From NCBI GenBank assembly GCA_947627515.1, contig CANQWI010000001.1, positions 1 through 63,826 on the forward strand: 63,826 bases of DNA, read 5' to 3'. Below the pieces are notes generated by a model that did not search any database, had not been told where the DNA came from, and saw only the letters and a list, made by a program, of their open reading frames with translations. This DNA is from an uncultured Clostridia bacterium (GTDB taxonomy: Bacteria > Bacillota > Clostridia > Christensenellales > Borkfalkiaceae). Each line of letters begins with the position of its first letter. The first letter of the stretch is position 1. The position numbers and the translations under genes were made by a program. This document shows, piece after piece, positions 19,583 to 48,525 of this stretch.

Positions 19583-19716
19583 CGCCGTCAAAGACCGAGG
19601 CCCGAAAAAAGGGATATCCCTTTTGGCTTCTCTCACAAGAGAAGCCAAGCATCTTAAAAGCTTTCCCCATATCGGGGAAATCGATAAAATCGAAAATTCA
19701 GGAGGAAAACAAGAAA

Positions 19717-21588: not shown

Positions 21589-21598
21589 CGGAGGCTGC

Positions 21599-23467: not shown

Positions 23468-23473
23468 GGGACT

Positions 23474-28600: not shown

Positions 28601-28909
28601 GACGACTTCAATCTGAGCGCGGCGATTTTGACCCTCACGACGGAGGATACCTCTCAAGGCTCGGTCGTTGAGCTCTGCTTCGGCGGCTACGGTGCCTCTG
28701 AAAATCCCGGCGAAAATCCCGGCACCACCCCCGGTGAGAACCCCGGCACGAATCCCGGCGAGAATCCCGGTACGAACCCCGGCGATACGGGTGAATCGAA
28801 CAGCGGCTGCGGCAGTGTGATCGGCGGCTACGGCTGGGCGATCGGCCTTCTCGTCCTTCTTCTCGGCGCAGGCATCGTTCTTATCGTCTCCAAAAAGAGA
28901 GAGAAATGA
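25640..28909 (+). CDS. surface protein with lectin-like and X2/Ig-like modules, an ENPG-repeat linker and a GCGSVIGG-TM-basic C-terminus
   Basis: AAGGAGG RBS and a signal peptide. X2-like segments (for example GKLTLTDESGNELPSTQFAYDGSKGTLTIKADYF). Tail: ENPGENPGTTPGENPGTNPGENPGTNPGD..SGCGSVIGGYGWAIGLLVLLLGAGIVLIVSKKREK. Confidence 0.7.
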   Translation: MKLTKKFRYVCTSLLAACCLGAAATGFAVMGAVHADAAAANGWTGGSREGEVTVCTDAVSIRSEVDILSLPGKTGIFYMYQSDGKEWSGFSLRNGNAGVGYSWILMENQGGEQVASSKETFPWHSLCFDGTNNHMILQDNREFTTGGTLGGLHGTEKENFLDGMIPVEIHIGEGTAKNDPSYVKIGGVELTNEDNETNITQPWTRGGGTSKELVSTMFPQGCYVVINYNIGSNPTHEFALSDVGSITSANATMDKTATYQYGAFGKDLSLDISSPEDVFDSGYQVVAKVNGKALPAESVTVEVKDNKSATVSIPEAKLNAIAKEDLKASTYFTFHVSKGETEYGYAVVSTNIRFEDAPQFTELDKTLTEKASFSYEFTYSGSEDPLNGIAISYAVGKTGGTLTAGTDFTVAKVASADDKYTITITQSGVDKIFFSGHTTSTVTIALGPHTVRSSVFIDGQITEEGIRFRSGIDYIDNTLHIDEFYASATIKKHNPETLSSRIFYEKPVDVSEPIFIEYGTLDPRVDWLLISLMSSPKISETFSNDTGVAMGNIVSFIMFGLDRHNMMGMQGTFANGSAVPEFEQNTNMKNNVVEIKLGAENASEGYIKVNGQQIDAVLTRSQKDFPSGKAYVGLFFNNTTDFDFTCNTHVNAVAITAPQADSAYKMDLGKAQDFTLSIVNTSGKLTLTDESGNELPSTQFAYDGSKGTLTIKADYFSAKTFVKDGRIFIYDNERKTGTAFRMAYSNSDMGKGSFVFAAKGDLKDVTFDLGVSSVTAVMQNGEAISADSYTFADGKLTIKAAALKDEVGSQQFLVNAGGKLYPCYVYVDEFVNGVVLGSGATAIENGVSLAGKTRYSEAKVYDLTEGLKLGFDFKTIDGYSERGTNANATRFTLRLYDPASGKTIFVTLYPNYPDDKITTSTQALYVSYGLLNAEGGRLPGGDNRPAAPADGNNSASGRHNLELKSTAAGGLTLTVAGRPYSISQDVLDDFNLSAAILTLTTEDTSQGSVVELCFGGYGASENPGENPGTTPGENPGTNPGENPGTNPGDTGESNSGCGSVIGGYGWAIGLLVLLLGAGIVLIVSKKREK

Positions 28910-28928
28910 TCTGATATCCGTAAGGCAG

Positions 28929-28956
28929 GCAGGATCCGTTCGGCGGGTCCTGCTTT
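28929..28956 (+). terminator. weak terminator-like hairpin
   Basis: gcaggatcc..gggtcctgc (one mismatch) followed by ttt. Possibly a partial terminator inside the locus. Confidence 0.35.
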
Positions 28957-28977
28957 GCCCCACGGTCGGAGGAAAGC

Positions 28978-30723
28978 ATGAAATTACGACAAGCGGCTCC
29001 GCTTCTTTTCGCATTGCTCTTTGTCGGTCCCGCCCTTGTGCCGTCTGTCTGTGCGTCGGCCGCAGGGGAGGTCTCGCTGAATAAGCCCGCGCTCGAGCTT
29101 GCCCTCGGCGAGTCGGAGCTTCTCACCGCCTCCGCGGACGTCACCTACACGAGTGCGGATGAGAGGGTCGCGACGGTCACAAACAGCGGCGTCGTCAAGG
29201 GCGTCGGCGTCGGCGACACGACGGTGACTGCGGCGCGGGAGGGGGCCTCCTGCACGATCCCCGTCCACGTCATTCCCGAGGAGAGGAGCTTTGACGAAAA
29301 TATCCTCATCTCCGTCTTTTGGCCTCCCACCGCGGAGTACATGAACGGGGGAGAGGGGGATACGCGCTGGGATGAGCAGTTTCAGCTGCTCTCCGACGCT
29401 CACATCGACTACCTCTGCAACGTCACGGGCAGGGACCGCCAGCAAAGCATCGGCTCCACGCCCCGTCAGGAGAACACCAAGGAGACCAATCTCAAGCTGG
29501 CCGCCTACGCCTACAAATACGGCATGCGGCTGAGCGTCGCGGACGAGCGTTTTTCAGCCTTCAGCACCATGAGCGAGGCAGAGATCCAGAGCATCATCGA
29601 CGAATACCGCAATGTCCCGGGCGTGGGGGGATATTACATCCTCGACGAGCCCTTTGACCCCATGCCCTATGCCCCCGTGCACGAGGCGATCAAGCTCGCC
29701 GACCCGACGGGGTACACCCATCTGAACTTCCAGCCCATCCACGCCTACGGCAGCACGGTCGGCTCCCTCGACGAGACGGCACAGGAACGCTACCGCAGGG
29801 TGCTGAGGTCTTGGCTGCAGGCAGGCGAGGACTGCGGCTTCCCGCAGGACTATCTCATGTTCGACTTCTATCCCTTTACGGGAACGGAGGGAGGAATGGA
29901 GCGGGACATCTACTTCTCCAACCTCGCCGCCGTCAGGGAGGTCGGACTGGAATTTCACGTAAAGACGGCCAACTACCTGCAGACGGTCAGCTCTGTCCTG
30001 CAGGCAAGCGGTGCGCTCGCCTTCCGAAGCGCGACTCCCGCAGAGATCCGCTACGAGGCCATGCTCTCCCTTGCATATGGCTGTAAGCAGCTCTCCTATT
30101 TCACATGGTTCCTTCCCACCAACCGCAACGGCGAGACCTTCTCAAGGGCGATCGTCGGCGACGACGGCGTTCCCGATCCCGAGTACTATCCCTTTGTCAC
30201 CGCGCTCAACAGCGAGCTCCACGCCCTCGGCAAAACGCTCATCGGGCTGGACGCGGTGGAGGTCTGTCTCAACGGGACGCTGTGGGGCGGGCAGGAGAGC
30301 ATTCCGACAAATTTCGTCCTTCAGCCTACCGACAGCAAAAATTACACCGTCTCCCTTCTCGAGGATAAGACGGGACAGCAATATCTCATGCTCGTCAACA
30401 ACGACTACACCGCTCCGCTTTCAACGACGGTCAAGCTCAGGGGCCTCTCCTCGGTGCAGCATATCCGCGCAGAGGACGGGGAGAGAGAAACGCTCCCGCT
30501 CGGGCAGGACGGCGCACTCTCCGTCACCCTGAACGCGGGGGACGGAATGCTTCTGTGCCTCGCGGAGGAGCCTGAGGAGCTCCCTTCTGACCCTCCCGAG
30601 GAGGAAAAGAGGGGCTGCGGCGGTATCATCGGCGGCGCGGGCGGCGGGGCGGCGGCTCTCCTGCTTTGCACAGGGCTCCTCTGCATCCGCAAAAAATCTC
30701 ATAGTCAAGAGGGAAAACAATGA
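28978..30723 (+). CDS. surface-anchored Big_2 + TIM-barrel-like putative glycoside hydrolase with a GCGGIIGG-TM-basic C-terminus
   Basis: Signal peptide. Big_2-like segment (VATVTNSGVVKGVGVGDTTVTAA). Catalytic-domain-like region with GGYYILDEP. Tail: KRGCGGIIGGAGGGAAALLLCTGLLCIRKK. Confidence 0.65.
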   Translation: MKLRQAAPLLFALLFVGPALVPSVCASAAGEVSLNKPALELALGESELLTASADVTYTSADERVATVTNSGVVKGVGVGDTTVTAAREGASCTIPVHVIPEERSFDENILISVFWPPTAEYMNGGEGDTRWDEQFQLLSDAHIDYLCNVTGRDRQQSIGSTPRQENTKETNLKLAAYAYKYGMRLSVADERFSAFSTMSEAEIQSIIDEYRNVPGVGGYYILDEPFDPMPYAPVHEAIKLADPTGYTHLNFQPIHAYGSTVGSLDETAQERYRRVLRSWLQAGEDCGFPQDYLMFDFYPFTGTEGGMERDIYFSNLAAVREVGLEFHVKTANYLQTVSSVLQASGALAFRSATPAEIRYEAMLSLAYGCKQLSYFTWFLPTNRNGETFSRAIVGDDGVPDPEYYPFVTALNSELHALGKTLIGLDAVEVCLNGTLWGGQESIPTNFVLQPTDSKNYTVSLLEDKTGQQYLMLVNNDYTAPLSTTVKLRGLSSVQHIRAEDGERETLPLGQDGALSVTLNAGDGMLLCLAEEPEELPSDPPEEEKRGCGGIIGGAGGGAAALLLCTGLLCIRKKSHSQEGKQ

Positions 30724-33262
30724 ACAAGCTACGTAACCGTATCTGCATCCTTGCGGCGGCCCTTGCGGGAGTCCTGCTCCTTTGCGGCCTGCTTATGATC
30801 AAGCCCGTCTCGGCCTCTGCCGCGGAGGATGCCGCCGCGTCCTACTGCCCCGCGGGCTCCTCGAACATCTCGCTCCACAGGCCCGTGACGGCCTCCTCGA
30901 CCTATGAGGCGCAGGGGGAGGGCTGGAGCACCGTCTTTCTGACGGACGGCAGGACGGCACTCCCGGGGCGCAGCCCCCCAACGGCTGGACGACGATGCCG
31001 CACGAGACGGAGGACGCAAGCACTCCCGCATGGGCAAAAATCGACCTGCAGGGAGAATACGAGCTCACCCGCATCGTGCTCTTTCCCCGCAACGACCATG
31101 CGGACAACTACGGCGAATGCTTCCCTGTGGACTTTCAGCTGCAGGTCTCCGCGACAGGGGAGGAGAATGCATGGGAGACCGTCAAGAGCTTCGAGGGGGT
31201 CGCAAAGCCCACCGAGCCCTTCAGCGCGGACATTGCAGGCTCCCCCAAGGCAAGCTATGTGCGCCTGTATGTGACAAAGCGCACGGGGGAGGATAACCTT
31301 TCGGGCGGGGGCGGCGGCAACGACGGAAAGCTCGTCCAGCTCTCTGAGATGGCCGTGTTCGGCAGAGTCGTCCGCTCGGCGGCAAAGCTCAACAAGACCG
31401 CGCTCGAGCTCAAGCTCGGTAGCTCTGAGAGGGTCGGCCTCACCCTTACGGAGGGGGTCCCCACGCTCAGTTGGACGAGCGACGACAGCAGCATCGCTGC
31501 CGTCTCACAGGACGGCACGATCACGGCAAAGGGCGTCGGCAGCACGACGGTGCGTGCAAGCGGCGAGGGCTTTGCGGAGCAGACCGTTTCCGTCTCCGTC
31601 GTCGAAAAGAAATATGACTTTGACGAAAACATCACGCTCTCCGTCTTTTGGCTCCCCACCAAGACCTATCTCAACGGCGGCGAGGGGGATGAACGGTGGG
31701 ATGAGCAGTTCAAGCTCCTTCAGGACGCCGATATCGACTGGCTCGCCCACGTCACCGACAACGAGAACACGGGCATGCTGCTCACCTCTAAGGAGGACAA
31801 TCTCAAGGCGGCGCAGTATGCCGCAAAATACGGCATGCACCTCACCGTCGCGGACACCCGCTTCGGGCAGAATCTTCTGCACATGACCGAGGAGGAGATC
31901 GTGGCTCTCATCGAGGAATACCGCAATATCCCGGGCGTCGGCGGCTACTATCTTTGGGATGAGCCGGGGCCCGACGTCAACTTCGAAAGGGTCGACTTCA
32001 CCTCAAGCTATGCGCAGGTGTATGCGGCGATGAAAAAGACAGACCCCGACGCGTATACCCATCTCAATTTCCTTCCCATGTTTGCCTATGCGGACAACGA
32101 GACCGCCTACCGCAACCACATCTCCGCTTGGCTGGATGCGACGGAGAAGGAGGGGGTCGCGCAGGACTACATCATGTACGACTTTTACCCCTACACGGGC
32201 TTCGGGACGGACATGGACCGAGAGCATTTCTTCTCCAACCTCGATGCCATGCGCAAGATCGGCCTCGATTACGGCGTAAAGACGGCGACCTACCTCCAAT
32301 CCAACGGCGGCCCGTCCAAGCGTTCGCCCTCGCCCGCAGAGATCCGCTATCAGGCGATGGTCTCCCTTGCCTACGGCTATAAGCAGCTCTCCTACTTCAC
32401 ATGGTTTTTGCCTACGAATCGCGGCGGGGAAAGCTTTCAGGGCTCCATCGTGAACGATCAGGGCGTCCCCAATCCGAATACGTACGAGGCCGTCTCCAAG
32501 CTCAACAGAGAGATCCACAGCCTCGGCAAAACGCTTGCGGGGCTCGACAGTCTCGAGGTGTACCTCAACGGAAAGCAGTACGGCGGCCAGCTCCCTGTCC
32601 CCGAGGCCTTTCCTCTCCTCTCCATGGACAACACGGAGTACACCGTTTCCCTTCTCAAGGATAAAAAGACTGGCCGCAACTATGTGATGCTCGTCAACAA
32701 CGACTTCACGCGATCCATGCAGACCTCCGTCTATCTCAATTACGGCATCCGCTCGCTCGCGCAGGTCAGCCCCGTTGACGGGACGCTCAAGGGGGTCGAT
32801 GTGCCCTCCGACGGCATTCTTACCATCTCGCTCGAGGCGGGGGACGCCGTGCTCTATGCCCTTCCCGAGGGGATGGACTATACCGCAGAGCAGCTGACGG
32901 ACAAGACGCAGGCAAACGCCATCCTCACCCGCGCAAGTGCCGAGAGGGGAACGCTCTCCGCAGCCGATGTCGCCCTTCTCGATGCGGCGACGGAGGAGCT
33001 CAGGGCCGCGATGCAGGACGTGCACACGACGCAGGCCCGTCTCGACGCCCTCACGGAAAGGGTGAAGGACATTCTCGACAATGCCCAAAGGCTTCCCGAC
33101 GACCCCGCGCCTCCCTCGGGGGGAACGGACGACCCCGCGCCCCCTCCCAAGGAGGAAAAGAAGGGCTGCGGCGGCGTGATCGGCGGGACCCTCGGCGGGG
33201 CATGCGCGGCAGGACTGCTGCTCCTTGCGCTTCTTCTCATCAAAAAGAAAAGGAGAGAATGA
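30720..33262 (+). pseudogene. frameshifted paralog: signal peptide, discoidin (F5/8 type C)-like domain, Big_2, TIM-barrel-like domain, GCGGVIGG-TM-basic tail
   Basis: ORF 30720-31274 supplies the signal peptide and the start of a discoidin-like domain. The domain continues in the -1 frame (..AQPPNGWTTMPHETEDASTPAWAKIDLQGEYELTRIVLFPR..), which the track calls as ORF 30995-33262. One extra G in the G4 run at 30965-30968 would join the two frames. The ATGA start overlaps the upstream stop. Confidence 0.7.
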
Positions 33263-33288
33263 TCTCTCCTTTTACCCTCACGGGGTGG

Positions 33289-34032
33289 TTAAACAATGAC
33301 AGGCAGGCCCTTGAGCGCGGCGCGGCGGGAGCGTGAAAGCTCGTCAAAGATGAGCATGTCAAACGCCGTGAACGGCTCAAGCAGGTAGGTCCCCGACTGC
33401 TCGAACTTGCTCTGATCTGCGACGAGGACGCGGAACACCGACCGCTGGAACACCGTCCGCTTGATCTCACGCTGGTCGAGGGAGGTCTCATACGTCCCCG
33501 TGCTGTCGAGCGCGGAACAGGACGTCAGCATGAGGTCAAAGTGGAACTCCGACATCAGCTTGGTCGTCCAGCTGCCCGTGATGGCATGCCCGTGCGGGGA
33601 GACCGTTCCCCCCGGGATGATGAGGTTGATGCCGCGGATGCGCGAGAGCACCGCGACCGCCTGCAGGGAGTTCGTGATCACCGTCTTTTCGGAAAGGGTC
33701 ATCTGCTGGGCGACCGCGAGCACGGTGGACGAATTGTCCAAAAACACCGTCTTGAAGTCGGTGGGGATGTGCTCGATGGCCTTCCGCGCGATCTGCACCT
33801 TGGACTCCGCGTTCTCGGTCATACGTACAAGGATGGAGACCTCGTCAGCCGCCTCCAGAAGCACGGCCCCGCCGTGGCTCCTTCTCAAAAGCCCCAGATC
33901 CTGCAGATCGATGAGGTCGCGCCGTATGGTCGCCTCGCTCACATACAGCTTTTTGGCGAGCTCGCTGACGGTCGCCGACCCCTGCTTCCTCAAAACAGAG
34001 AGGATCTCTTCCTTTCTTGTGTCATTTAACAT
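33289..34032 (-). CDS. DeoR/GlpR family transcriptional regulator (probable rhamnose regulator)
   Basis: N-terminal HTH ILSVLRKQGSATVSELAKKLYVSEATIRRDL and a C-terminal DeoR sugar-phosphate-binding domain. Divergent from rhaBAD. Confidence 0.9.
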   Translation of the reverse strand: MLNDTRKEEILSVLRKQGSATVSELAKKLYVSEATIRRDLIDLQDLGLLRRSHGGAVLLEAADEVSILVRMTENAESKVQIARKAIEHIPTDFKTVFLDNSSTVLAVAQQMTLSEKTVITNSLQAVAVLSRIRGINLIIPGGTVSPHGHAITGSWTTKLMSEFHFDLMLTSCSALDSTGTYETSLDQREIKRTVFQRSVFRVLVADQSKFEQSGTYLLEPFTAFDMLIFDELSRSRRAALKGLPVIV

Positions 34033-34109
34033 TTTTCACTTCCGAATTTGCTCGTTTGTGCTCGTATTATAGCATATTTCTGAAGTTTTGTCAACATTTC
34101 AAACTTACA

Positions 34110-34138
34110 TAGACAAAATTTTCATTTTATGGTATCAT
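34110..34138 (+). promoter_or_regulatory. candidate rhaBAD promoter
   Basis: TAGACA, 17 nt, TATCAT with TGG immediately upstream. The -10 hexamer ends 17 nt before ATG 34156, so the leader would be very short. Confidence 0.4.
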
Positions 34139-34155
34139 AAATGTGAGGTTGAAAC

Positions 34156-35523
34156 ATGAAAACGTTTCTTTCGATCGATATCGGAGCCTCTTCGGGACGG
34201 CACATTCTCGGCTCGGTGAAGGACGGCGTCCTCACCGTCGAGGAGATCTACCGCTTCCCCAATTCTCCCATTCTCAGGGACGGCTCCCTCGTCTGGGACG
34301 TCGAACGGCTGCGGCGCGAGGTGATCCTCGGCATGAAGAAGGCGGGGGAGCTCGGCAGGATCCCCGAGAGCGTCGGCATCGACACATGGGCGGTCGACTA
34401 TGCCCTTCTCGACGGCGACAAAAATCTCGTCGGCCCCGTCCATGCCTACCGTTCCCCCCGCACTCAGTCGGTGATCTCCTCGGTGCATGCAAGGATCCCC
34501 TTTGACGCGCTCTATCAGCGGACGGGCATCCAGTTCCAGCCCTTCAACACCGTCTATCAGCTCGCCGCAGACCAACAGAGCGGCGTCCTCGCACAGGCAC
34601 GCTACATGCTCATGCTCCCCGATTATCTCAACTTCTGTCTCACGGGAAAAATGAGCCGCGAATACACCAACGCCACCTCGACGGGCCTTGTCGCCTGCGC
34701 AGGGCATACATGGGACGAGGGCATCCTCGACGCTCTCGGCTATCCAAAACGGCTTTTCCCGCCGCTCACCCAACCGGGGGCGGTGCTCGGAGGCCTCTGC
34801 AGGGAGGTCCGTGAGGAGGTCGGGTACGACACGCTCGTCGTCCTTCCCGCCACGCATGACACGGCCAGCGCCGTCGTCTCCTCGCTCGCGGGGAAGGGGG
34901 CGTATCTCTCGAGCGGGACATGGTCCCTGCTCGGCACCCTGCAGCCGACCGCACACACGGACGAAAAGACCCGCGCCTTCAACTATTCCAACGAGGGACA
35001 TCTCTTCTGTAAATTCAGATTGCAGAAGAACATCATGGGTCTCTGGATCATCCAGCGTCTGCGCGAGGAGGAGGCTCCGCACCTTTCCTTCCCGCAGCTC
35101 ATGGCCCTTGCCGAGGGGAACGTCAACGACTGCGAGATCGACGTCAACGATACGACCTACCTCGCCCCGCAGAATATGAAGGAGCGGATGGAGGCTGAGG
35201 CGGGCAGGAGACTCTCCCTCGGCGAGGCACTGTATGCGGCGTTCAGGGGACTTGCCGTCTGCTACCGCGACGCGCTCACCGAGCTCTCCTCCGTCACGGG
35301 GGAGCAGTACAGGGAGCTGAATATCTTCGGCGGCGGGAGTAAAAATCGCCTTCTCAACACGCTCACCGCACAGCTCGCGCGGGTCAGAGTCACGGCGGGC
35401 CCCGCAGAGGCGACCGCCATCGGCAATCTTCTCGTCCAGATGGACGCAATGGGGGAAAGCTCCTTAAAGGACGCCCCCGCAATCGTAAAAGCATCCTTTG
35501 AAACGGAGGAATTCACATCATGA
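34156..35523 (+). CDS. rhaB: rhamnulokinase (FGGY family)
   Basis: N-terminus LSIDIGASSGRHILG, FGGY layout with GGGSKN near the C-terminus, and operon context with rhaA and rhaD. Confidence 0.88.
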   Translation: MKTFLSIDIGASSGRHILGSVKDGVLTVEEIYRFPNSPILRDGSLVWDVERLRREVILGMKKAGELGRIPESVGIDTWAVDYALLDGDKNLVGPVHAYRSPRTQSVISSVHARIPFDALYQRTGIQFQPFNTVYQLAADQQSGVLAQARYMLMLPDYLNFCLTGKMSREYTNATSTGLVACAGHTWDEGILDALGYPKRLFPPLTQPGAVLGGLCREVREEVGYDTLVVLPATHDTASAVVSSLAGKGAYLSSGTWSLLGTLQPTAHTDEKTRAFNYSNEGHLFCKFRLQKNIMGLWIIQRLREEEAPHLSFPQLMALAEGNVNDCEIDVNDTTYLAPQNMKERMEAEAGRRLSLGEALYAAFRGLAVCYRDALTELSSVTGEQYRELNIFGGGSKNRLLNTLTAQLARVRVTAGPAEATAIGNLLVQMDAMGESSLKDAPAIVKASFETEEFTS

Positions 35524-36755
35524 CCGATCATCGTTCGGCCTATGCCGCATTCGGCGTCGATACGGAGGCCGCGCTCTCAAGGCTCGCCTCCATTCCCGTC
35601 AGCATCCACTGCTGGCAAGGAGACGACGTCATAGGGTTCGACGGGGCGGGAAGCCTCTCGGGCGGCATTCAGACAACGGGCAATTATATGGGCCGCGCCC
35701 GCAATTTCGAAGAGCTCAAATCGGACATCAGGGAGGCCTTTTCCCTCATGCCCGGGAAAAAACGGCTCAACCTTCACGCCAGCTACGCCATTTTGGGCGA
35801 GGACGCGGGGAGGGTGGACCGTGACGGGTATACATTCAAACATTTTATCCCGTGGGTGGAATTTGCCAAAGAGCTTGACCTCGACGGCATCGATTTCAAC
35901 CCGACATTTTTCGCCCACCCCAATATGAAGGACGGACTCACTCTCTCCTCCCCCCAAGAGAGCGTCCGTTCCTTCTGGGTGGAGCACGGCAGACGCTGCA
36001 TGGAGATCGCCGCGGAGCTTGGAAAGGCCTTCGGGAAGCCCTGCCTCGTCAACATCTGGATCCCCGACGGGTTCAAGGATGTCCCCGCCGACCGTCTCGG
36101 CCCCCGCCTCAGGTTAAAGAGGTCCCTCGACGAAATTCTTGAAAATTACGACAGAGAATGGGTGATTCCCGCCGTCGAGAGCAAGGTCTTCGGCATCGGC
36201 GTCGAGAGCTACACCGTCGGCTCCAACGAATTTTATCAGAACTATGCCGCAAAGAGAGGCATCTGCTGCCTCCTCGACAACGGCCACTATCATCCGCTCG
36301 AATATGTCTCCGACAAGATCCCCGCGCTCCTCTCCTTCTATGACAGGGTCGCCCTACATGTCACCCGCGGCGTCCGCTGGGACAGCGACCATGTCGTGCT
36401 CTTTGAGGATGAGCTCAAGGAGATCGCCAAGGAGATCGTCAGAAACGATGCGACGGAAAAGGTCCTCATCGGGCTCGACTACTTCGACGCAAGCATCAAC
36501 CGCATCTTCGCTTGGGTCACGGGGCAGCGGTCCATGCAGAAGGCCCTCCTCTACGCCCTCCTTCTTCCCAATGAGGAGATGAAACGGCTACAGGACGCAG
36601 GCGACTTCACCGCCCTCATGGACCTTCAGGAGAGGGTCAAGACGCTTCCCTTCGGGGCAGTTTGGGAGGAATATCTCACACGTCAGGGTCTCACGGACGA
36701 CGTTCTTTCCCGCATCCGCAGCTACGAACGGACAGTATTAAAGGAGAGAGTATGA
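35520..36755 (+). CDS. rhaA: L-rhamnose isomerase
   Basis: Characteristic SIHCWQGDDVIGF, with length and context as expected. ATGA overlap with rhaB. Confidence 0.9.
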   Translation: MTDHRSAYAAFGVDTEAALSRLASIPVSIHCWQGDDVIGFDGAGSLSGGIQTTGNYMGRARNFEELKSDIREAFSLMPGKKRLNLHASYAILGEDAGRVDRDGYTFKHFIPWVEFAKELDLDGIDFNPTFFAHPNMKDGLTLSSPQESVRSFWVEHGRRCMEIAAELGKAFGKPCLVNIWIPDGFKDVPADRLGPRLRLKRSLDEILENYDREWVIPAVESKVFGIGVESYTVGSNEFYQNYAAKRGICCLLDNGHYHPLEYVSDKIPALLSFYDRVALHVTRGVRWDSDHVVLFEDELKEIAKEIVRNDATEKVLIGLDYFDASINRIFAWVTGQRSMQKALLYALLLPNEEMKRLQDAGDFTALMDLQERVKTLPFGAVWEEYLTRQGLTDDVLSRIRSYERTVLKERV

Positions 36756-37564
36756 AGGACATTTTATCTGCCTCTTTTTTGAAGGCATTCTCTAAGGTGA
36801 CGAGCAATATGTACCGCCTCGGCTGGGACGAGCGCAACGGCGGCAACCTCTCCCTTCTCCTTGAAGAGGAGGAGGTCGCTCCCTATCTTGACCTGAAGGA
36901 CGTCAAGCGTCGTTTTTTCCTCGGGTTTGACGCGCAGGCTCTTGCGGGCAAGTACTTTCTCGTCACGGGCACACAGAAGTATTTCAAAAACGTGGAGGGG
37001 GATGAGGAAAACAACCTCGGCCTCTTCCGCATCTCCGCGGACGGCACAGAGGGGGAGCTCCTTTGGGGCTATGCGGATGGGGGAAGGCCCACAAGCGAGC
37101 TTCCCGCACATCTCATGAGCCATATCGCCCGCCGCTCTGTCGACCCCATGAATCGCGTTGTCATGCACACGCATCCCACCAATCTGCTCGCCATGACCTA
37201 TGTGCACGAGCTGGAGACAAGGCAGTTTACTCATACGCTGTGGCAAATGTCGACCGAGTGCATTGTCGTCTTTCCCGACGGCGTCGAGGTGCTCCCGTGG
37301 ATGCTCTGCGGCACCAATGAGATCGGCGAGGCCACTGCGGAGCGCATGAAAAAGGCCCGCGTCGTCGTTTGGTCCATGCACGGCATCTATGGCGCAGGAA
37401 AGACGCTCGACGAGACGTTCGGCCTCGTGGAGACCGTCGAAAAGGCCGCCACCGTCTACATGCTCACGGCTGGACTCAAGCGCGTCAATACAATTCAGGA
37501 CGAGGAGCTCAAGGTCCTCGCCAACTACTTCGGCGTCGAGTATCGGAAGGGGATAATAGACTGA
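36752..37564 (+). CDS. rhaD: rhamnulose-1-phosphate aldolase (class II aldolase/adducin family)
   Basis: Start at MKDILSASF (ATG 36752, ATGA overlap with rhaA, AAGGAGAG RBS). Motifs ERNGGNLS, HTHPTN and MHGIY. Confidence 0.88.
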   Translation: MKDILSASFLKAFSKVTSNMYRLGWDERNGGNLSLLLEEEEVAPYLDLKDVKRRFFLGFDAQALAGKYFLVTGTQKYFKNVEGDEENNLGLFRISADGTEGELLWGYADGGRPTSELPAHLMSHIARRSVDPMNRVVMHTHPTNLLAMTYVHELETRQFTHTLWQMSTECIVVFPDGVEVLPWMLCGTNEIGEATAERMKKARVVVWSMHGIYGAGKTLDETFGLVETVEKAATVYMLTAGLKRVNTIQDEELKVLANYFGVEYRKGIID

Positions 37565-37569
37565 TTGTT

Positions 37570-37639
37570 TCGAAGGTTTTTTTGCTCGGTTCCCTGCCCG
37601 CCGTTGGCGGCCATGGTCCCTTCGAAAAAAAACCTTCGA
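37570..37639. terminator. long symmetric hairpin (tcgaaggT7 ... A8ccttcga), possibly a bidirectional terminator
   Basis: 14-bp outer stem with a T-run on one arm and an A-run on the other, enclosing an inner ccgcc/ggcgg hairpin. It starts 6 nt after the rhaD stop. Confidence 0.5.
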
Positions 37640-37812
37640 GCGAACCTTCCTTGTTCATCAATTAAGTTGGCTGCGGAAGCGTTATATGCATGGACAACAA
37701 GCGCGAGGTATCGCGCAAATTGAGTGCGCTTAGGCGGGGCAACCCCGCCACGCGCCGTAAGCTTGAATGAAGGGACCGCCGCGTCATTATTCTACGGACC
37801 ATTCCAACTCAC

Positions 37813-37841
37813 GTCATGGTGAGCTCCGTCGAACCATCACC
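37813..37841 (+). repeat. REP-like hairpin unit, copy 4 (stem ATGGT/ACCAT)
   Basis: gtcATGGTgagctccgtcgaACCATcacc. Confidence 0.6.
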
Positions 37842-37866
37842 GCTTTACGGAAGCATCCCCAATCAC

Positions 37867-37894
37867 GTCATGCTGAGCTTGTCGAAGCATCACC
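37867..37894 (+). repeat. REP-like hairpin unit, copy 5 (stem ATGCT/AGCAT)
   Basis: gtcATGCTgagcttgtcgaAGCATcacc. Confidence 0.6.
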
Positions 37895-37895
37895 A

Positions 37896-37929
37896 CAATT
37901 TTTAATTTTTAATTTTAAATTTTAAATTC
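37896..37929 (+). repeat. AT-rich short-period tract (aattttt-like), copy 1
   Basis: caatttttaatttttaattttaaattttaaattc. The first 23 nt (caatttttaatttttaatttt) are repeated at 38241. Confidence 0.55.
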
Positions 37930-37986
37930 AGAATTCGCTCGCTGCCCCTGTAGGGGAAGTGGCCTATAGGCCAAAGGGGTTTAAAG

Positions 37987-38068
37987 TCCTCATCCCGCCC
38001 CGCGCACATTCTATTTGTGACTAAGCGCGGCACGAGCACCGCCCTTGGTGCGAAGTAGCGCAGCGAGT
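37987..38068 (+). repeat. 82-nt repeat, copy B (inverted relative to 10531-10612)
   Basis: See copy A. The two copies are near-identical by eye. Confidence 0.75.
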
Positions 38069-38160
38069 GGATCTCATCAAAACCTACGGACTCAATAATC
38101 TCGCCCTCCCCCTCATACTTGAGGGGGAGGGGTAGGGGAGGGGGTGATTCAAAATGATAA

Positions 38161-38189
38161 GGTGATGGTTCGACGGGGCTCACCATGAC
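38161..38189 (-). repeat. REP-like hairpin unit, copy 6 (stem ATGGT/ACCAT), inverted
   Basis: The reverse complement reads gtcATGGTgagccccgtcgaACCATcacc. Confidence 0.6.
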
Positions 38190-38240
38190 AAAATTGGAAT
38201 GACCCGTAGGTATCAAGCCTTCATTCTCACTCTCTCACCG

Positions 38241-38279
38241 CAATTTTTAATTTTTAATTTTCAATTTTTAATTTTCAAC
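38241..38279 (+). repeat. AT-rich short-period tract, copy 2
   Basis: caatttttaatttttaattttcaatttttaattttcaac. Confidence 0.55.
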
Positions 38280-38341
38280 GGTCCTATCCGTGGAAGACAC
38301 GGTAAGAATAAAGGATAAGGGAAATTTTAAGGAGGAGAACT

Positions 38342-41300
38342 ATGAAACAGACAAAGACAAGAAGCGTATTGCTGCTTCTCACGATCGCAATGCTCGTACT
38401 GACCTTGGGTCTCGGGCTTGTATTCATGCAGAAGAGCAATCACGCCAGCGCGGATGAGCCGTCCCCCGAGCTCGTCCCGCTCGCCGACGCCGAGCTGCTG
38501 AACTCGACGGCTTTCAAGTCGCCCAATGGGAGAGGGATCTTCTGGGACGACAATCATTCCCAAATGCGTCTTTTCTACAAAGTCAACAACGGAACTCCTA
38601 CAAAGCTTGGACAGGCTCCTGCAGGGAAATACCGTGAAAGCACTTTGCTTGAAATAACAAATGGGGGCACAACGAAGGATATCAAGGATTGGGCCGAGGT
38701 CGCTTGGGCCTCAAACATGGGGCAACATAACGGCGATGATAAGGTCGGCGAGATTTGGATCAATTCTACATCCTCTGCTTGGCTCGAAGGCATTACGGAA
38801 GTCCACTATAAAATAGGCTTTTCCGAGTTGACCGAAGATGGAAATGAAACCGATGTTAAAACCACCAAGGATTATACCCTGTGGAACGGCGGCGACCACG
38901 GCTGGCTGACACGTGTAGACAATACGAAGGAGCTTGAGGTCACTTACTCCGGCGGCAATATCGCATGGGGCGGCAAGCTCGACGAGAGCAAGCTTGAAGT
39001 CAAGGCGACCCCCAAGGGCGCACAGGACCCCGTCAAGATCGATGCAGGCTGCTATACGCTTGAATACGATTCCACAAAATCGGGACAGATCACTGTTACC
39101 GTCAAATATCAGGATTTGACGCCTAAGACCTTCAACGTCACCGTCGAAGCAAATGACACCTCGAAGGGGCTGAAGGTCCTTCACGACTACAGCAATGCGC
39201 AATACAAAACCGATTGGGGCGGGCAGGGTAGTTCAAATTCCCAGCTGCTTGTTTACTTCGATCTTTTCGGCGAAGTAACGCCTCCCGCAGTTGGCGCAAG
39301 CAACCTTCCTTTTACTGCAGGCTCACATGTATTTGATAGTATCTATATCAATGGTCAACCCTATGCGCAGTGGAATACCGCATTTTCCTCGGGCGCGGGT
39401 GCTTGGGTCGGCTCCTTTGATGCCGTAACACCGTTCTCAAGCTATAACGCGTATGTGCTTTGGTTCAATGCGGGCAATAATGATTGGAGAAATACAGTAG
39501 AGACCGTTACGATCAAAGCAGGCTTCCAGTGGGTAGACGCAAACGGTGATGTTGCCGATGCAATTGTCAAAGAGGACTACACCCTCTACAATGCGCATGA
39601 TGCAGGCTGGCAGCGTGCGGTAGACAGCATTTCCGCGGAATACACGGGCGGGGAGGTAGAGGTCGGCAGCTCGCTTGACCTTTCCAAGCTCACCGTGACG
39701 GGCAAATTTACCGACAAGAGTGCCGACGCGAAAATCGACAACTCCAAGCTCACGATCGGCGCACTGCCGAGCGAGGCGGGACAGGGCAAGGTCGACATCA
39801 CCTATCAGGGCAAGACCTGCCAGCTCGATGTCACGATGAAGGCCTCGAAGACCCTCACAGGCGTCACCGTTGAGGGGACAGAGGGCGCGACCGCAGAGCA
39901 GTGGACATATCCCACCTTCGACGGCATCACCGTAAAGGCGCAGTTCGAGGGAGCGGAGGAGGAAACGCTCGAGAAGGGCCAGTACACGATCACCTGTGAC
40001 GCATGGACGCTCGGCCAGCAGACCGCGACCGTCTCCTACACCTACGCAGGCAAGACCGAGACTACGACCTTCAGCTTCAACGTCACGGCAAACACCGCAA
40101 CAGATAAGTATTTTGAAATTCTGGAAGAAACGCGCAGCACAAATGTTGCCTTCCCCGGGTATTTCAATTACGCCTTGACCTACAAGGTCAACTTTGTCGA
40201 CGTAGATATCAAAGGGCTCAATCTCAGTGTAGCGAACTACTACTTTGACAAGGTGAAGGGCATCCACCTCACCGACTATATCGAATTTATCTACGGTGGA
40301 GAAACGAAGTCGGCGAAGGAGCTCTTTGCAAGCGGCGAATTGGAGCACATCGGATTCTCGGACAGCGGCAGATTGGTTATTTGCTTCAAGGATGAGGCCT
40401 CGCGCAGCAAGGTCACGCAGACTGCATTCAAGGCAGGCATGGAAATTGCGTCTAACCAAAATGCGTTTGACTTCAATGCTGCTCAAAGTACGCTTGATTC
40501 GACCGCGATTTTCCTCGCGAACGGCGTGCTCAAAAAGGACTATGTGTTCTTCAACGGCGGCGGGCAGGGCTGGCTCAAGGCGGTCGAAACGCTCACAGCG
40601 ACCTACGAGGGTACCGTCCTTCAGAACGGCGAGCTCAACAGGGAGAATCTCACCGTCAACGCAACCTATTACGGCGAGGAGCAAGCGACCAAGCTCGGCA
40701 ATAACGACTACACCGTAGAATTCTCCTCCGCAGAGGCCGGAGACGAGATCGAGGGCACCGTCACCTACCGCGGTAAGACGGCGACCTTCACCGTCAAGGT
40801 CGAGGCTCCCACCAAGACGCTTGAAAGAATCGAGGTCTCGGGCACGACGGAATTCACGGGCAAACGCTTCGGCACCGCGCCCGCACTTGACGGCCTTGTT
40901 GTCACGGCCTACTTCGAGGGCGAGGATGAGGGCACAGTCCTTCAGACAGGCGATTACACCGTCGGCGCATTGGATATGTGGGACACGGAAGGCGATCACA
41001 AGATCCAAATCTCCTACCTCTATGGCACGACGACCAAGACCGCCGAGATCACCCTCAAAATCACCGCTCCCGACGATACCGTCCACTTTGACTTCATCGA
41101 AGGCGGCTCTCACAACGGATATGTCGACGATGATACCGCATGGGGCAAGCAGGGACAGGGCAAGGGCGGCACGCGCTTCGTATGGCAGGGCAGATATTGC
41201 CTGACCTTCCCGATCACGTACACGGGTGTTGCAGACAACTATCCGAAGAACGTCAATGCCATTCATCTCGAGTGGACAAACGGCATTCATCTTGGCGAAT

Positions 41301-42529
41301 ATGTGAAGCTGACCTATGACGGGCAGGTAAAGACGCTTGCAGAGCTCTTGACGGATACGACGGTCAAGTCGGTTGGTCTCTCCGATAACGGGCACCTCAT
41401 CATTTGGTTTACGGAACCTGACAACTGCATGAAAGTGACCGACGTCACCTTCCTCGCAGGTATGCAGCTTCCGAAGATCACCTCCGAAGGGATCGCTTGG
41501 TCTGATACCGCAACCCGCGACCAGCTGAATCAGAGCGTCGAGCTCGTTCCCGGGCTTGTCCTGCTTCAGGATATCTGCCTCTGGAACGGCGATGCGGCAG
41601 GCTGGCAGCTCCGCGCAGACAGCATTGAGGCGGCGGCAAAGGCAGACGCCAAGTTCATGCAGGGCACTGCCGACATCAAGTCGCTCCTCGAGGTCAAGGC
41701 CGTTTACGGCGCCGAAAAGAAGGCCATCACCGACTTCACGATTACAAATTACAACAAGGACACGCTCGGACAGCAGACCATCACCGTCACCTATCAGGAC
41801 CGCACGGCGACCGTTCAGATCACAGTCGAGAAGCAAGCGGAGCCCGAGCCTACCGAATACACCGTCACCTTTGCGATCGGCGACCACGCGGCGGCAAACG
41901 AGAAGGCTCCCAATGAGCAGAAGGCAGTGGAGAACGGCAAGATCACGCTTCCCGCAGCTCCCAAGGCGGCAGAGGGGTATGAGTTCGACGGCTGGTACGA
42001 CGGCGCGACCAAGGCAGGCGATGCAAACGCGCAGTACACCGTGACCAAGAACGTCACCCTTACCGCACACTGGAAGGAGGTGACAAAGCCCGAGCCCGAG
42101 CCCGAGAAGGTGACCGTCACCTTTAACCTGAACGGCGCAACGGGCACGGCTCCCGCAGAGCAGACCATCGACAAGGGCGCAAAGGCCACGAGACCCGCGA
42201 CAGACCCGACCCGCGAGGGCTACACGTTCGGCGGCTGGTATACGGATTCTGCCTGCACGAAGGAGTTCAAGTTTGACGAGGCCGTCAACGAGGACACCAT
42301 GGTTTACGCCAAGTGGACGAAGAACGCCGAGGAGAACCCCGGCACCCAGCCCGGCGACCGGCCCGACCGGCCCGATCAGCCCGGTAACCGGCCCGAGGAT
42401 CCCAATCAAACGGGTGAAGCGGACAACGGCTGCGGCAGTGTGATCGGCGGCGTGGGCATCGCGCTCGCGGTCATGGTCATGCTCGGCACGGCGCTCATCG
42501 TGCTTCTCAAGCGCAAAAAGAACAACTAA
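38342..42529 (+). CDS. large surface protein: repeated bacterial Ig-like modules, two Listeria-Bacteroides repeats, a P/D/N-rich linker and a GCGSVIGG-TM-basic C-terminus
   Basis: AAGGAGGAG RBS and a signal/TM segment. Recurrent Big_3-like units (..YTLEYDSTKSGQITVTVKYQDLTPKTFNVTV..). EGYEFDGWY and EGYTFGGWY repeats. Tail: DNGCGSVIGGVGIALAVMVMLGTALIVLLKRKKNN. Confidence 0.8.
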   Translation: MKQTKTRSVLLLLTIAMLVLTLGLGLVFMQKSNHASADEPSPELVPLADAELLNSTAFKSPNGRGIFWDDNHSQMRLFYKVNNGTPTKLGQAPAGKYRESTLLEITNGGTTKDIKDWAEVAWASNMGQHNGDDKVGEIWINSTSSAWLEGITEVHYKIGFSELTEDGNETDVKTTKDYTLWNGGDHGWLTRVDNTKELEVTYSGGNIAWGGKLDESKLEVKATPKGAQDPVKIDAGCYTLEYDSTKSGQITVTVKYQDLTPKTFNVTVEANDTSKGLKVLHDYSNAQYKTDWGGQGSSNSQLLVYFDLFGEVTPPAVGASNLPFTAGSHVFDSIYINGQPYAQWNTAFSSGAGAWVGSFDAVTPFSSYNAYVLWFNAGNNDWRNTVETVTIKAGFQWVDANGDVADAIVKEDYTLYNAHDAGWQRAVDSISAEYTGGEVEVGSSLDLSKLTVTGKFTDKSADAKIDNSKLTIGALPSEAGQGKVDITYQGKTCQLDVTMKASKTLTGVTVEGTEGATAEQWTYPTFDGITVKAQFEGAEEETLEKGQYTITCDAWTLGQQTATVSYTYAGKTETTTFSFNVTANTATDKYFEILEETRSTNVAFPGYFNYALTYKVNFVDVDIKGLNLSVANYYFDKVKGIHLTDYIEFIYGGETKSAKELFASGELEHIGFSDSGRLVICFKDEASRSKVTQTAFKAGMEIASNQNAFDFNAAQSTLDSTAIFLANGVLKKDYVFFNGGGQGWLKAVETLTATYEGTVLQNGELNRENLTVNATYYGEEQATKLGNNDYTVEFSSAEAGDEIEGTVTYRGKTATFTVKVEAPTKTLERIEVSGTTEFTGKRFGTAPALDGLVVTAYFEGEDEGTVLQTGDYTVGALDMWDTEGDHKIQISYLYGTTTKTAEITLKITAPDDTVHFDFIEGGSHNGYVDDDTAWGKQGQGKGGTRFVWQGRYCLTFPITYTGVADNYPKNVNAIHLEWTNGIHLGEYVKLTYDGQVKTLAELLTDTTVKSVGLSDNGHLIIWFTEPDNCMKVTDVTFLAGMQLPKITSEGIAWSDTATRDQLNQSVELVPGLVLLQDICLWNGDAAGWQLRADSIEAAAKADAKFMQGTADIKSLLEVKAVYGAEKKAITDFTITNYNKDTLGQQTITVTYQDRTATVQITVEKQAEPEPTEYTVTFAIGDHAAANEKAPNEQKAVENGKITLPAAPKAAEGYEFDGWYDGATKAGDANAQYTVTKNVTLTAHWKEVTKPEPEPEKVTVTFNLNGATGTAPAEQTIDKGAKATRPATDPTREGYTFGGWYTDSACTKEFKFDEAVNEDTMVYAKWTKNAEENPGTQPGDRPDRPDQPGNRPEDPNQTGEADNGCGSVIGGVGIALAVMVMLGTALIVLLKRKKNN

Positions 42530-42550
42530 CCCCCATCTTCCTCCGACAAA

Positions 42551-42572
42551 GGGGCGTCCGTAAGGACGCCCC
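42551..42572 (+). terminator. terminator-like GC hairpin without a clear U-tract
   Basis: ggggcgtcc-gtaa-ggacgcccc, starting 21 nt after the stop. Confidence 0.4.
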
Positions 42573-42643
42573 GAAGCGGGGGATAAGCAGCTGAAAACAA
42601 CAAGCGGAAGAGCATTCTTCCGCGTTTTCGTAGAAGGTAAATT

Positions 42644-47190: not shown

Positions 47191-47211
47191 TTGATCCTCA
47201 GGAGAATTTGT

Positions 47212-48525
47212 ATGAAAAAAATTACGGCGTTGCTTCTTGCGGCGATCCTTTGCCTCGGTCTCTGCGCAGTCGGCTGTGATAAGGGCAGCTCTGCGGGCTC
47301 CGATGGCGATCCCACGCAGACAGGCGGCAATCACAACAATAACAATAACGACGACAACAACGACAATAATGACGACAATCACGGCAACGGCGATGAGCAA
47401 AAGCCCGAGGAGCCTCTCATGGAGTATCGGAAGTATGATTTAAAGACCTATCTCACCCCCTTTTGGGAGGGGACCGTCGTCTACAACGAGACCCTCTGGT
47501 TTGCGGGCGAGGACGACTTTACCGCGCCGCTCATGTATGCCCCCGACGAGATCGTCTCCGTCATGAGCTACGACCTTACCAAGACCTATCGGGAAGGCGT
47601 GGATTATGTTTGGGAAAAGGGCAGCAAGACCATCCGTCTCCCCGAGGGCTCCTCCATCCCGCACATGACCTATCGGGAGTACTATACGGGTGCCATGACG
47701 AGTATCGACGGGAACGGGCTCTACTTTGCGGAGGGGAGCGATATCTGCAGCCGTCAGGTCGCCGTCACCTATCGCCACAGCGACACCGCAGAATGGACGC
47801 TGCCCCGCCTCGAGAGGGAGAATTTCCCCAAGACGTTTGAAAAATTGGAAAACGGCGAGAGCATCAATGTCGTCTTTTACGGCGACTCCATCACCGTCGG
47901 CGCCAACTCGAGCGACTATGTCGACTATGGACCCCACGCGGAGAGCTACCCCGAGATGGTGCGCTCCTATATGCAGAAACGCTACCCCGCGGCGACCGTC
48001 AATTACATCAATACCGCAGTCGGCGGCGTCGATTCCAACTGGGGCAATGACGGCAAAATGGGACATGAGCTCGACAGCATGGACGGCGGCGCACACTTTA
48101 AAACACGCGTGCTCGACAAAGCGCCCGACCTGCTCTTCATCGCCTTCGGCATGAACGACGGCCCGTCCGACGCAAATTACAAGGCCAACATCAAATCGAT
48201 GATCGACCGCGTCCGTGCGGAGTATCCCGAGGTCGAGATCATGCTTGTCTCGGGCATGACCGCAAACTTCGAGGCGGCGGGCTTTTACAATAAGGACTAT
48301 GAAAAATTCCAGCAGGCACTCATAGAGCTTGCAGAGGCCTACGAGGGGATCGGCGTCTCCACCGTCTTAAACACCGTGCGCAGCCTCGAGGGTAGAACGC
48401 TCGGCAAACGCTTCCGCGACTGGACGGGCAACAACGTCAATCATCCCAACGACTTTATGGCCCGCGTCTATGCGCAGACCATCCTCTATACCCTCTTCGG
48501 CTCCGATTATATCAAGTACATCTGA
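47212..48525 (+). CDS. SGNH/GDSL-family esterase lipoprotein (carbohydrate acetylesterase-like)
   Basis: AGGAGAA RBS. Lipobox LGLCAVGCD and an N/D-rich linker. SGNH blocks: VVFYGDSITVG (block I), FIAFGMNDG (block III), NHPND (block V-like). Confidence 0.8.
   Translation: MKKITALLLAAILCLGLCAVGCDKGSSAGSDGDPTQTGGNHNNNNNDDNNDNNDDNHGNGDEQKPEEPLMEYRKYDLKTYLTPFWEGTVVYNETLWFAGEDDFTAPLMYAPDEIVSVMSYDLTKTYREGVDYVWEKGSKTIRLPEGSSIPHMTYREYYTGAMTSIDGNGLYFAEGSDICSRQVAVTYRHSDTAEWTLPRLERENFPKTFEKLENGESINVVFYGDSITVGANSSDYVDYGPHAESYPEMVRSYMQKRYPAATVNYINTAVGGVDSNWGNDGKMGHELDSMDGGAHFKTRVLDKAPDLLFIAFGMNDGPSDANYKANIKSMIDRVRAEYPEVEIMLVSGMTANFEAAGFYNKDYEKFQQALIELAEAYEGIGVSTVLNTVRSLEGRTLGKRFRDWTGNNVNHPNDFMARVYAQTILYTLFGSDYIKYI

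Follow-up and report, generated by a model that had tools for sequence, protein, structure and literature searches.

MYXO-CTERM is a tripartite C-terminal tag that is cut by the CPBP protease MrtX, and it has been shown experimentally that the conserved Cys of the tag is required; cleavage by MrtX also takes place in E. coli on co-expression (PMC11980579). Lipidation of this Cys by an Lgt-like activity ahead of cleavage has been proposed only (PMC11980579; bioRxiv 10.1101/2023.06.07.544157). The curated range of the signal covers Myxococcota and Bradymonadales only (Haft, bioRxiv 10.1101/2023.06.07.544157), and other Cys-containing signals score similarly and need to be separated from it (Haft curation). 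A myxosortase is never found in an operon with its targets (bioRxiv 10.1101/2023.06.07.544157). Here, we describe a tail that is shared by four genes in a 63,826-nucleotide stretch of DNA (hereafter the window) from an uncultured Clostridia bacterium (GenBank assembly GCA_947627515.1, contig CANQWI010000001.1), a metagenome-assembled genome (MAG). All four genes, termed carriers 1 to 4, lie on the plus strand and end in G-C-G-[SG]-[VI]-I-G-G, a hydrophobic span and a Lys/Arg cluster. The tail is best seen as a clostridial variant within the known class of Cys-containing tripartite signals. By analogy, we read it as a monoderm counterpart of these signals in which the Cys would probably be lipidated and the helix may be removed, and to this reading we assign a probability of about 0.5.

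In a six-frame scan of the window, the octamer GCG..[IVL]GG was confined to four sites, each 32-36 codons ahead of a stop codon, and translation placed all four tails directly before the stop. The coordinates and sequences listed for them in an earlier reading made from the letters alone (the sequence-only reading) were reproduced exactly (Table 1). The same reading had described the carriers as secreted and their tails as preceded by low-complexity linkers. An N-terminal signal peptide is present in all four, in carrier 3 only if a frameshift is bridged, and a linker rich in Pro, Glu, Asn, Gly and Asp lies ahead of every tail. The sequence-only reading had also set apart a 2150-residue surface protein as plainly anchored, and this protein does end in a plain hydrophobic helix followed by RSRKHD, without Cys or a Gly-Cys motif.

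The upstream domains differ among the carriers, as had been claimed, whereas the domains named for them (lectin and X2 modules, Big_2 with TIM-barrel modules, and Ig repeats) were only partly as described. Pfam returned a single weak Shr-like HID match for carrier 1, Big_2 for carrier 2, F5/8 type C, Big_2 and a GH42-like barrel for carrier 3, and Big_3 with Listeria-Bacteroides repeats for carrier 4. The tail is kept in P0002, an orthologue of carrier 1, and EADNGCGSVIGG is kept in P0001 and P0003, which are relatives of carrier 4 (P numbers denote proteins from homology searches, and L numbers denote genomic loci from other assemblies). The frameshift of carrier 3 sits at a short C/G homopolymer region (a C-run, 30960-30975). 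Given that the orthologues P0044, P0045 and P0047 (831-868 residues) are intact, with the sequence ...PGVQPPNGW... uninterrupted across the site, the gene is a recent pseudogene, unless the frameshift arose through an error in sequencing or assembly.

Homologues of carrier 2 were collected through its enzyme domain, which gave 35 proteins including the second and third carriers of the window. Since these proteins were found through the enzyme domain and not the tail, their C termini constitute an unbiased sample. A tail was present in 27 of the 35. Both the Cys and the Gly that precedes it (position -1) were found in 27/27 tails and Gly at +1 in 24/27; position +2 was Ser, Gly, Ala or Thr in 26/27, and positions +3 and +4 were mostly Val/Ile and Ile/Leu, respectively. 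The three residues before Gly(-1) were mostly Glu, Lys or Gly, and the helix sequence was free to vary. The Cys singled out in the sequence-only reading was thus borne out as invariant. The octamer did not hold as the whole motif, the core conserved across relatives being only Gly-Cys-Gly, and the suggestion of thioester chemistry at the Cys found no support. Two tails have a double Cys, namely GCGC in P0048 and GCGGCG in P0042. Across 49 tails, the distance from the Cys to the first basic residue was 20-33 residues (median 23), that from the Cys to the C terminus was 25-41 residues, and the end cluster held 2-7 basic residues. Given the first of these distances, the Cys would directly abut the membrane span at its outer edge. 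Among the homologues that lack the tail, P0039 carries an N-terminal lipoprotein signal instead, the actinobacterial protein P0061 has LANTG, a helix and RRRR at the tail position, which is a sortase signal, and two further actinobacterial homologues have no anchor. As P0039 and P0061 show, the type of anchor is interchangeable among homologues.

Similarity between the tails extends to the DNA. The 25-nucleotide string cggctgcggcagtgtgatcggcggc, which had been reported as identical in carriers 1 and 4, was indeed found at 28804 and 42427 and nowhere else in the window. In the most conserved part of the module (Table 1), the columns that flank the motif are nearly all identical between these two genes, and the few mismatches all lie ahead of the exact string; the DNA coding for the helix is much more diverged than that coding for the motif. 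Carriers 2 and 3 gave the same pattern of conserved motif DNA and diverged helix DNA. This conservation is what would be expected if the motif is strongly constrained, if the module was exchanged recently, or if both apply.

The distribution of the tail was examined by several searches. A 36-position profile built from the four tails and searched against 1.84 billion representative proteins gave 3 matches at E ≤ 0.001, each of which is related to carrier 1 or 4 and has EADNGCGSVIGG ahead of a helix and a basic end; so few matches were significant because a profile of 36 positions cannot reach significance in so large a library. A word-index search with the tail profile returned only short open reading frames (ORFs) and carrier fragments and was uninformative on family size. 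A degenerate DNA pattern for GCG[ST]VIGG was also scanned over one genome per species. Among the matches listed, 11 of 119 were true C-terminal tails, with a hydrophobic span, a Lys/Arg cluster and a stop within 26-32 codons, and 11/11 came from MAGs labelled Clostridia, Clostridiales, Eubacteriales or Lachnospiraceae; the other 108 listed, from many phyla, had no tail features. A stricter pattern applied to metagenome contigs gave 7 matches, of which 3 were clear tails, in ORFs of 633 to 2033 codons. When a looser Gly-Cys-tail pattern was applied, clostridial loci totalling 126 kb yielded 10 ORFs and the 64-kb window yielded 4, and non-clostridial loci totalling 755 kb yielded 0, which excludes chance. 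Finally, an independent profile of 44 tails, from which the window sequences had been left out, scored carriers 4, 1, 3 and 2 at 40.9, 29.6, 27.2 and 22.1 bits, respectively. The best control reached 20.3 bits, the controls themselves having been selected for carrying the octamer.

Adjacent tail-bearing pairs were seen at L044 (4731-5702 and 5930-7306, minus strand; GCGTVIGG with GCGNVIGG) and at L045 (1145-3130 and 4599-7898, minus strand; GCGSVIGG with GCGSVLPFG), and these neighbouring paralogues in other clostridial MAGs mirror the clustering in the window. Local domain shuffling fails as an explanation because the tail occurs well beyond the window in related genomes, where, as here, it is carried by unrelated passengers; the earlier description of a conserved module on differing secreted proteins is accordingly upheld. 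Comparison of these sequences points to a portable module that is lineage-wide, is placed on unrelated secreted passengers and occurs commonly among uncultured Clostridia of the gut and rumen, and the reading of the tail as a sorting or anchoring signal is supported by this comparative evidence. No paper containing the string GCGSVIGG was found in the literature searched, and none linked CTERM sorting to Clostridia or described such a clostridial signal.

The tail also occurs with little or nothing attached to it. The mini-proteins P0013 (86 residues), P0025 (74 residues; L125, 491-715) and P0029 (76 residues) have no passenger domain and consist of an N-terminal lipoprotein-type signal, an acidic, Pro- and Thr-containing linker of 30-50 residues and a tail of the form KKGCGSVIG-helix-KKKD, a layout that would tether them at both ends. 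In addition, conserved stand-alone ORFs of 38-39 residues, such as MGAVAGGCGSVIGGGFAILMIAALVIGSLVLSKRKSNNQ, are essentially the tail alone, with GCGSVIGGG invariant (Table 1). The one encoding P0019 is flanked by a class IV aminotransferase gene on one side and by a complete T-box leader (L001, 10152-10385; 93.8 bits) on the other, with leuA-ilvB-ilvN-ilvC-ilvD downstream of the leader. A role for this 39-residue ORF as an ilv/leu leader peptide was considered and rejected: a complete T-box leader already stands between it and leuA, which leaves no need for attenuation through such a peptide. The invariance of GCGSVIGGG argues that the tail-only ORF may encode a real small membrane protein, and such 38-39-residue peptides could be further substrates or regulators of the tail pathway. 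A different C-terminal, lipobox-like anchoring idea is already under curation as the NCBIfam model NF058595 'invert_tail' ('lipo-invert putative C-terminal anchoring domain'). This model gave no match to the tails studied here; its score of 15.9 bits against a cut-off of 37 came from the N-terminal lipoprotein signal of P0025 only.

The tails were compared with the curated C-terminal sorting models of NCBIfam release 20 in three scans comprising 28 tail sequences, with E values up to 10. Neither the window proteins nor their isolated tails reached any such model, save for marginal LPXTG_anchor matches of the isolated tails (16.2 bits; cut-off 15.9) in which only profile positions 11-34, the helix and basic end, were aligned. 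Ten tails from other genomes reached no cut-off, the best near-miss being Rumino_NPXTG (21.8 bits against 23.5; profile positions 5-30, helix and KKKE end only). These matches, together with the LANTG that P0061 has at the same position, are what speaks for a divergent sortase signal in which GCGS replaces LPXTG or NPXTG and the protein is linked to peptidoglycan. The LPXTG_anchor matches were rejected as evidence of such a signal, given that the aligned part covers the helix and charged end and never the motif. Moreover, the tails have no Pro or Thr-Gly, no LPXTG motif is present in any window tail, as had been stated, and the 64-kb window holds no sortase gene. A sortase signal is therefore considered highly improbable.

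Two tails from relatives gave a different result. P0048 scored 29.2 bits on TIGR03901.2 (cut-off 20; positions 3-33 of 34) and 16.5 bits on TIGR03382 (cut-off 15.85), and P0037 scored 17.0 bits on the latter. The window tails gave no TIGR03901 match. Since tails of relatives pass these cut-offs and window tails do not, the family straddles the boundary of the MYXO-CTERM models, and it should be borne in mind that these models can match clostridial proteins. The tail is thus not remote from known signals, although the window tails themselves lie below all CTERM cut-offs. Synerg-CTERM scores were 7-12 bits (maximum 11.7) against 22.5, JDVT-CTERM reached at most 12.9 against 27, and CGP-CTERM and Firmicu-CTERM were never listed in the three scans of 28 tails.

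Two Arg-rich tails, P0034 (25.0 bits) and P0036 (15.9 bits), passed the cut-off of the GlyGly-CTERM model (TIGR03501; 15.5), and in most tails the motif is followed by GG or a Gly-rich stretch. Such features would be expected if the tail were cleaved by a rhomboid-type, rhombosortase-like enzyme with the Gly-rich helix start as the determinant, as in GlyGly-CTERM, and with the Cys secondary. The matches are, however, restricted to the helix and Arg cluster (positions 2-22 for P0034 and 1-22 for P0036), and the window tails gave none. In addition, GlyGly-CTERM has no invariant Cys, whereas the Cys is invariant here; its hosts are proteobacterial and possess a rhombosortase, whereas the present host is a clostridial MAG; and no rhomboid gene was found in the window or near the carriers examined. 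Cleavage of this kind is regarded as improbable.

The MYXO-CTERM system, with its myxosortases MrtX, MrtC and MrtP and its models TIGR03901 and TIGR03382 'GC_trans_RRR', resembles the clostridial one in several respects. The C-terminal tag of each measures ∼30-40 residues and combines an invariant Gly-Cys with a single helix and a basic cluster, and double-Cys GCGC forms occur occasionally in both, GCGC being the generic MYXO-CTERM motif (PMC11980579). In both, there are many carriers per genome with unrelated passengers, a disordered linker precedes the tag, and no enzyme gene lies beside the targets; the scores of P0048 and P0037 add to this likeness. By contrast, the clostridial tails occur in a monoderm MAG host and not in Myxococcota or Bradymonadales, with neither an outer membrane nor a type II secretion step; their basic cluster is mostly Lys, often with KKKED or KKKNN at the end; and they have no spacer between Cys and helix, where TraA has ∼14 residues (counted from the peptide in PMC11980579). 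Synerg-CTERM (TIGR04564, MrtS) is similar in its short Ser/Gly-rich signature, its single invariant Cys abutting the helix without a spacer and its restriction to one lineage. It differs in the invariant Pro of its Leu-rich helix, in a cut-off that lies far above the scores of the clostridial tails, and in its diderm Synergistota hosts, in which it co-varies with a type II secretion system. The LPXTG and NPXTG signals (TIGR01167 and NF033846) share the position, the layout of linker, helix and charged end, and carriers that are surface enzymes and adhesins, and the helix and KKKED end of the clostridial tails resemble those of Ruminococcus NPXTG proteins; here, however, the signature is Gly-Cys-Gly, and the predicted attachment is to membrane lipid and not to peptidoglycan.

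The N-terminal lipobox recognized by Lgt and Lsp, L-[ASTVI]-[GAS]-C at the end of the hydrophobic region of a signal peptide, provides a further comparison. In both cases the Cys is placed at the outer membrane interface among small residues, a likeness that is limited to Gly at -1 and Gly-Ser at +1/+2 of the tails. The tail stands at the C terminus in inverted topology with its Cys before the helix, and its -3 and -2 positions are occupied by Glu, Lys, Gly, Asp or Asn where the lipobox has Leu or Ala. Two secreted lipoproteins encoded in the window have classical N-terminal signals (Table 1), in which the lipobox Cys has a small-residue setting (G-C-G-T and G-C-S-L) that resembles the G-C-G-S of the tails. 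These signals suggest that the organism makes Cys-lipidated proteins and has a lipoprotein pathway.

The preferred reading entails the following sequence of events. The carriers would be exported through the Sec pathway by means of their N-terminal signal peptides. The helix of the tail would then stop transfer, with the Lys/Arg cluster on the cytoplasmic side and, given the spacing described above, the Gly-Cys at the outer membrane-water interface, while the linker, rich in Pro, Glu, Asn and Thr, may serve as a stalk through the cell wall. By analogy with MYXO-CTERM, the Cys thiol would be lipidated by a membrane acyltransferase, for which Lgt-like enzymes are obvious candidates, and the helix would then probably be removed by an intramembrane protease encoded elsewhere, most likely a 'myxosortase-like' enzyme of the CPBP/Rce1 type. 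A lipid at the C terminus would thus remain to tether the enzyme or binding protein to the cytoplasmic membrane on its outer face. For the rhamnose and rhamnoside locus of this window, the signal would display glycoside-hydrolase-like and binding proteins at the cell surface. What can be read from the sequence is limited to the export signal and the topology. The dedicated sorting signal of the sequence-only reading is therefore retained in part: the tail is conserved and portable, and lipidation, cleavage and a dedicated enzyme are what we infer from the analogy.

Several observations weigh against lipidation and cleavage. The best MYXO-CTERM score of the window tails, 12.4 bits on TIGR03382, lies below the cut-off of 15.85. 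The residues at -3 and -2 of the tail are charged (Glu or Lys), unlike the hydrophobic residues of a lipobox, and the topology is inverted relative to that of Lgt substrates. MYXO-CTERM processing serves outer-membrane transport, a rationale that is missing in a monoderm, where a plain helix anchors equally well. Pfam analysis of the larger ORFs in the 64-kb window revealed no sortase, exosortase, rhomboid or CPBP protein, in agreement with the earlier statement that no processing enzyme is encoded there, and no CPBP, sortase, rhomboid or exosortase gene was found beside ∼20 other carriers. Neither the window nor these neighbourhoods encode a cognate myxosortase, which would be a CPBP protease with the NF040914 core. 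A regular expression for CPBP motifs, run over 12 loci and the window, returned nothing relevant. The multi-helix ORFs of the window are transporters or have no significant family match, the multi-helix neighbours of other carriers matched only VTT, MFS, Na/Ala symporter, PAP2, DUF1538 and YqfD families, and the gene contexts of the mini-proteins P0025 and P0006 were uninformative. Given that a myxosortase never shares an operon with its targets, the lack of a protease linked to the carriers is nonetheless consistent with a MYXO-CTERM-like arrangement. A gene for a PAP2-family membrane phosphatase lies directly downstream of a carrier at L108 (405-1175, plus strand) and L119 (787-1503, minus strand), both in related Eubacteriales MAGs. 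The match at L119 (PF01569, E = 4.8e-12) is to the only membrane lipid enzyme found beside a carrier, and the adjacency probably reflects shared synteny.

The main rival is that the tail is a retained, uncleaved stop-transfer anchor in which the interfacial Cys has another role. Here, the GCGSVIGG start would be a juxtamembrane or helix-packing motif (G-x-x-x-G within GSVIG), with S-acylation or an interchain link as possible roles of the Cys; alternatively, the motif may help to oligomerize or position surface enzymes. The hydrophobic span between motif and basic cluster is long enough at 20-33 residues for a stable helix, VIGG is hydrophobic as well as rich in Gly, and helix starts of this Gly-rich kind are seen repeatedly. 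Furthermore, there is no evident reason for the helix to be shed in a monoderm cell, no protease lies near any carrier examined, and the 2150-residue neighbour makes do with a plain helix. However, the G-x-x-x-G is lost in many tails (GCGAVLP, GCGAYLS, GCASSLG, GCKSSLG), and packing hardly accounts for the fact that a strict anaerobe has an invariant Cys on the outer side of its membrane. Tails of relatives pass curated cut-offs for a similar signal whose cleavage is established, and the tail-only ORFs and the mini-proteins of signal plus tail suggest that the tail itself is the recognized unit. A retained anchor is judged the less likely reading.

Taking the reading of a lipidated and cleaved tail one step further, we tentatively propose that monoderm Clostridia of the gut and rumen possess an undescribed 'C-terminal lipoprotein' pathway. 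In each genome, dozens of glycoside hydrolases and binding proteins at the surface would receive a lipid on Gly-Cys, and a housekeeping intramembrane protease, a clostridial analogue of myxosortase, would then cut them from the helix. If true, this would be a fifth Cys-containing sorting system. The clostridial tail has no curated model and would be the first signal of this class to come from Gram-positive bacteria, giving reason to extend the myxosortase paradigm from diderm Myxococcota to monoderm Bacillota, where the rationale must differ. The way in which Clostridia of the gut and rumen bind plant and host glycans and break them down is determined by surface display, and in these uncultured lineages the anchoring route of most surface enzymes is unannotated. 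The Gly-Cys tail provides a simple predictor of cell-surface proteins in such MAGs, and a profile hidden Markov model of it offers a handle for phylogenetic profiling toward the processing enzyme or enzymes, including the MYXO-CTERM acyltransferase.

The carriers belong to a locus for rhamnose and rhamnoside utilization, the genes of which are listed in Table 1. The G+C content of the window is 56%. Its IMP dehydrogenase shares 83-90% identity with proteins from MAGs labelled 'Clostridia bacterium' or 'Bacillota bacterium', which places the uncultured host among the Clostridia. A sporulation gene, YqfD, adjoins a carrier in L133, which suggests that the host is a monoderm of the spore-forming Clostridia type.

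Table 1. Positions of the tails, their carriers and other features in the window, and of tail-only ORFs at other loci
Feature	Coordinates	Strand	Description
Carrier 1	25640..28909	+	1089 residues; signal peptide, mostly unknown fold, ENPGT-type linker
Carrier 1 tail	28805-28906	+	GCGSVIGGYGWAIGLLVLLLGAGIVLIVSKKREK
Carrier 2	28978..30723	+	581 residues; signal peptide, Big_2, GH42-like barrel region, PPEEEKR linker
Carrier 2 tail	30613-30720	+	GCGGIIGGAGGGAAALLLCTGLLCIRKKSHSQEGKQ
Carrier 3	30720..33262	+	Paralogue of carrier 2; a one-base frameshift near 30960-30975 splits the gene
Carrier 3 upstream ORF	30720-31274	+	Signal peptide and beginning of F5/8 type C domain
Carrier 3 downstream ORF	30995-33262	+	Remainder, including Big_2 and GH42-like
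Carrier 3 tail	33164-33259	+	GCGGVIGGTLGGACAAGLLLLALLLIKKKRRE
Carrier 4	38342..42529	+	1395 residues; signal peptide, Big_3, Listeria-Bacteroides repeats, ENPGT/PDRPD linker
Carrier 4 tail	42428-42526	+	GCGSVIGGVGIALAVMVMLGTALIVLLKRKKNN
Most conserved module DNA	28760..28828 (carrier 1), paired with 42383-42451 (carrier 4)	+	Encodes T-G-E-x-x-x-G-C-G-S-V-I-G-G
Tail-only ORF	L001 10001-10120		NCBI GCA_045612895.1, JAZKZY010000075.1
Further tail-only ORFs	L002-L005; L016 about 1195-1310	- (L016)	
Tail-only proteins			P0005, P0007, P0009, P0010, P0014, P0019, P0020, P0027
Comparator surface protein	3761..10213	+	2150 residues; BspA LRR, Listeria-Bacteroides repeats
ABC permease and binding proteins	16429-25597		Rhamnose locus
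Two secreted lipoproteins	21599..25597 (starts 21599, 23474)	+	Classical N-terminal signals …AAAVGC/GTGS and …LTAAGC/SLGG (slash before the residue following Cys)
DeoR regulator	33289-34032	-	Rhamnose locus
FGGY kinase, L-rhamnose isomerase, class II aldolase	34156-37564		Rhamnose locus
Rhamnosidase-like genes	42644-47190		Rhamnose locus
GDSL esterase	47191-48525		Rhamnose locus

Just upstream of the ABC permease gene, the plus strand encodes a 759-residue protein (16429-18708) with an extensive extracytoplasmic part at the N terminus and ∼8 predicted helices. It gave no significant Pfam match (PQQ_2 was below threshold, at 17.3 bits against a cut-off of 27.6) and may be an unusual fused permease of rhamnoside uptake.

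On the minus strand, an ORF of 1633 codons (39437-44338) overlaps carrier 4 and the gene that follows it. Its third-position G+C is 0.56, compared with 0.75-0.85 in the plus-strand neighbours checked, carrier 4 not being among them. Given this low value and the Pfam domains in carrier 4, it is taken to be a shadow ORF of G+C-rich DNA. Elsewhere in the window, a giant plus-strand ORF (56338-63826) encodes at least 2496 residues, rich in Thr, Gly, Ala and Glu, with the signal peptide MSIRKKLIGVLIACMVALLA...; because it runs past the end of the window, it is not on the ORF list, and its C terminus and type of anchor are not visible. The minus-strand ORFs at 56521-57150, 57544-58131, 58339-59316 and 59755-63729 are probably shadow ORFs.

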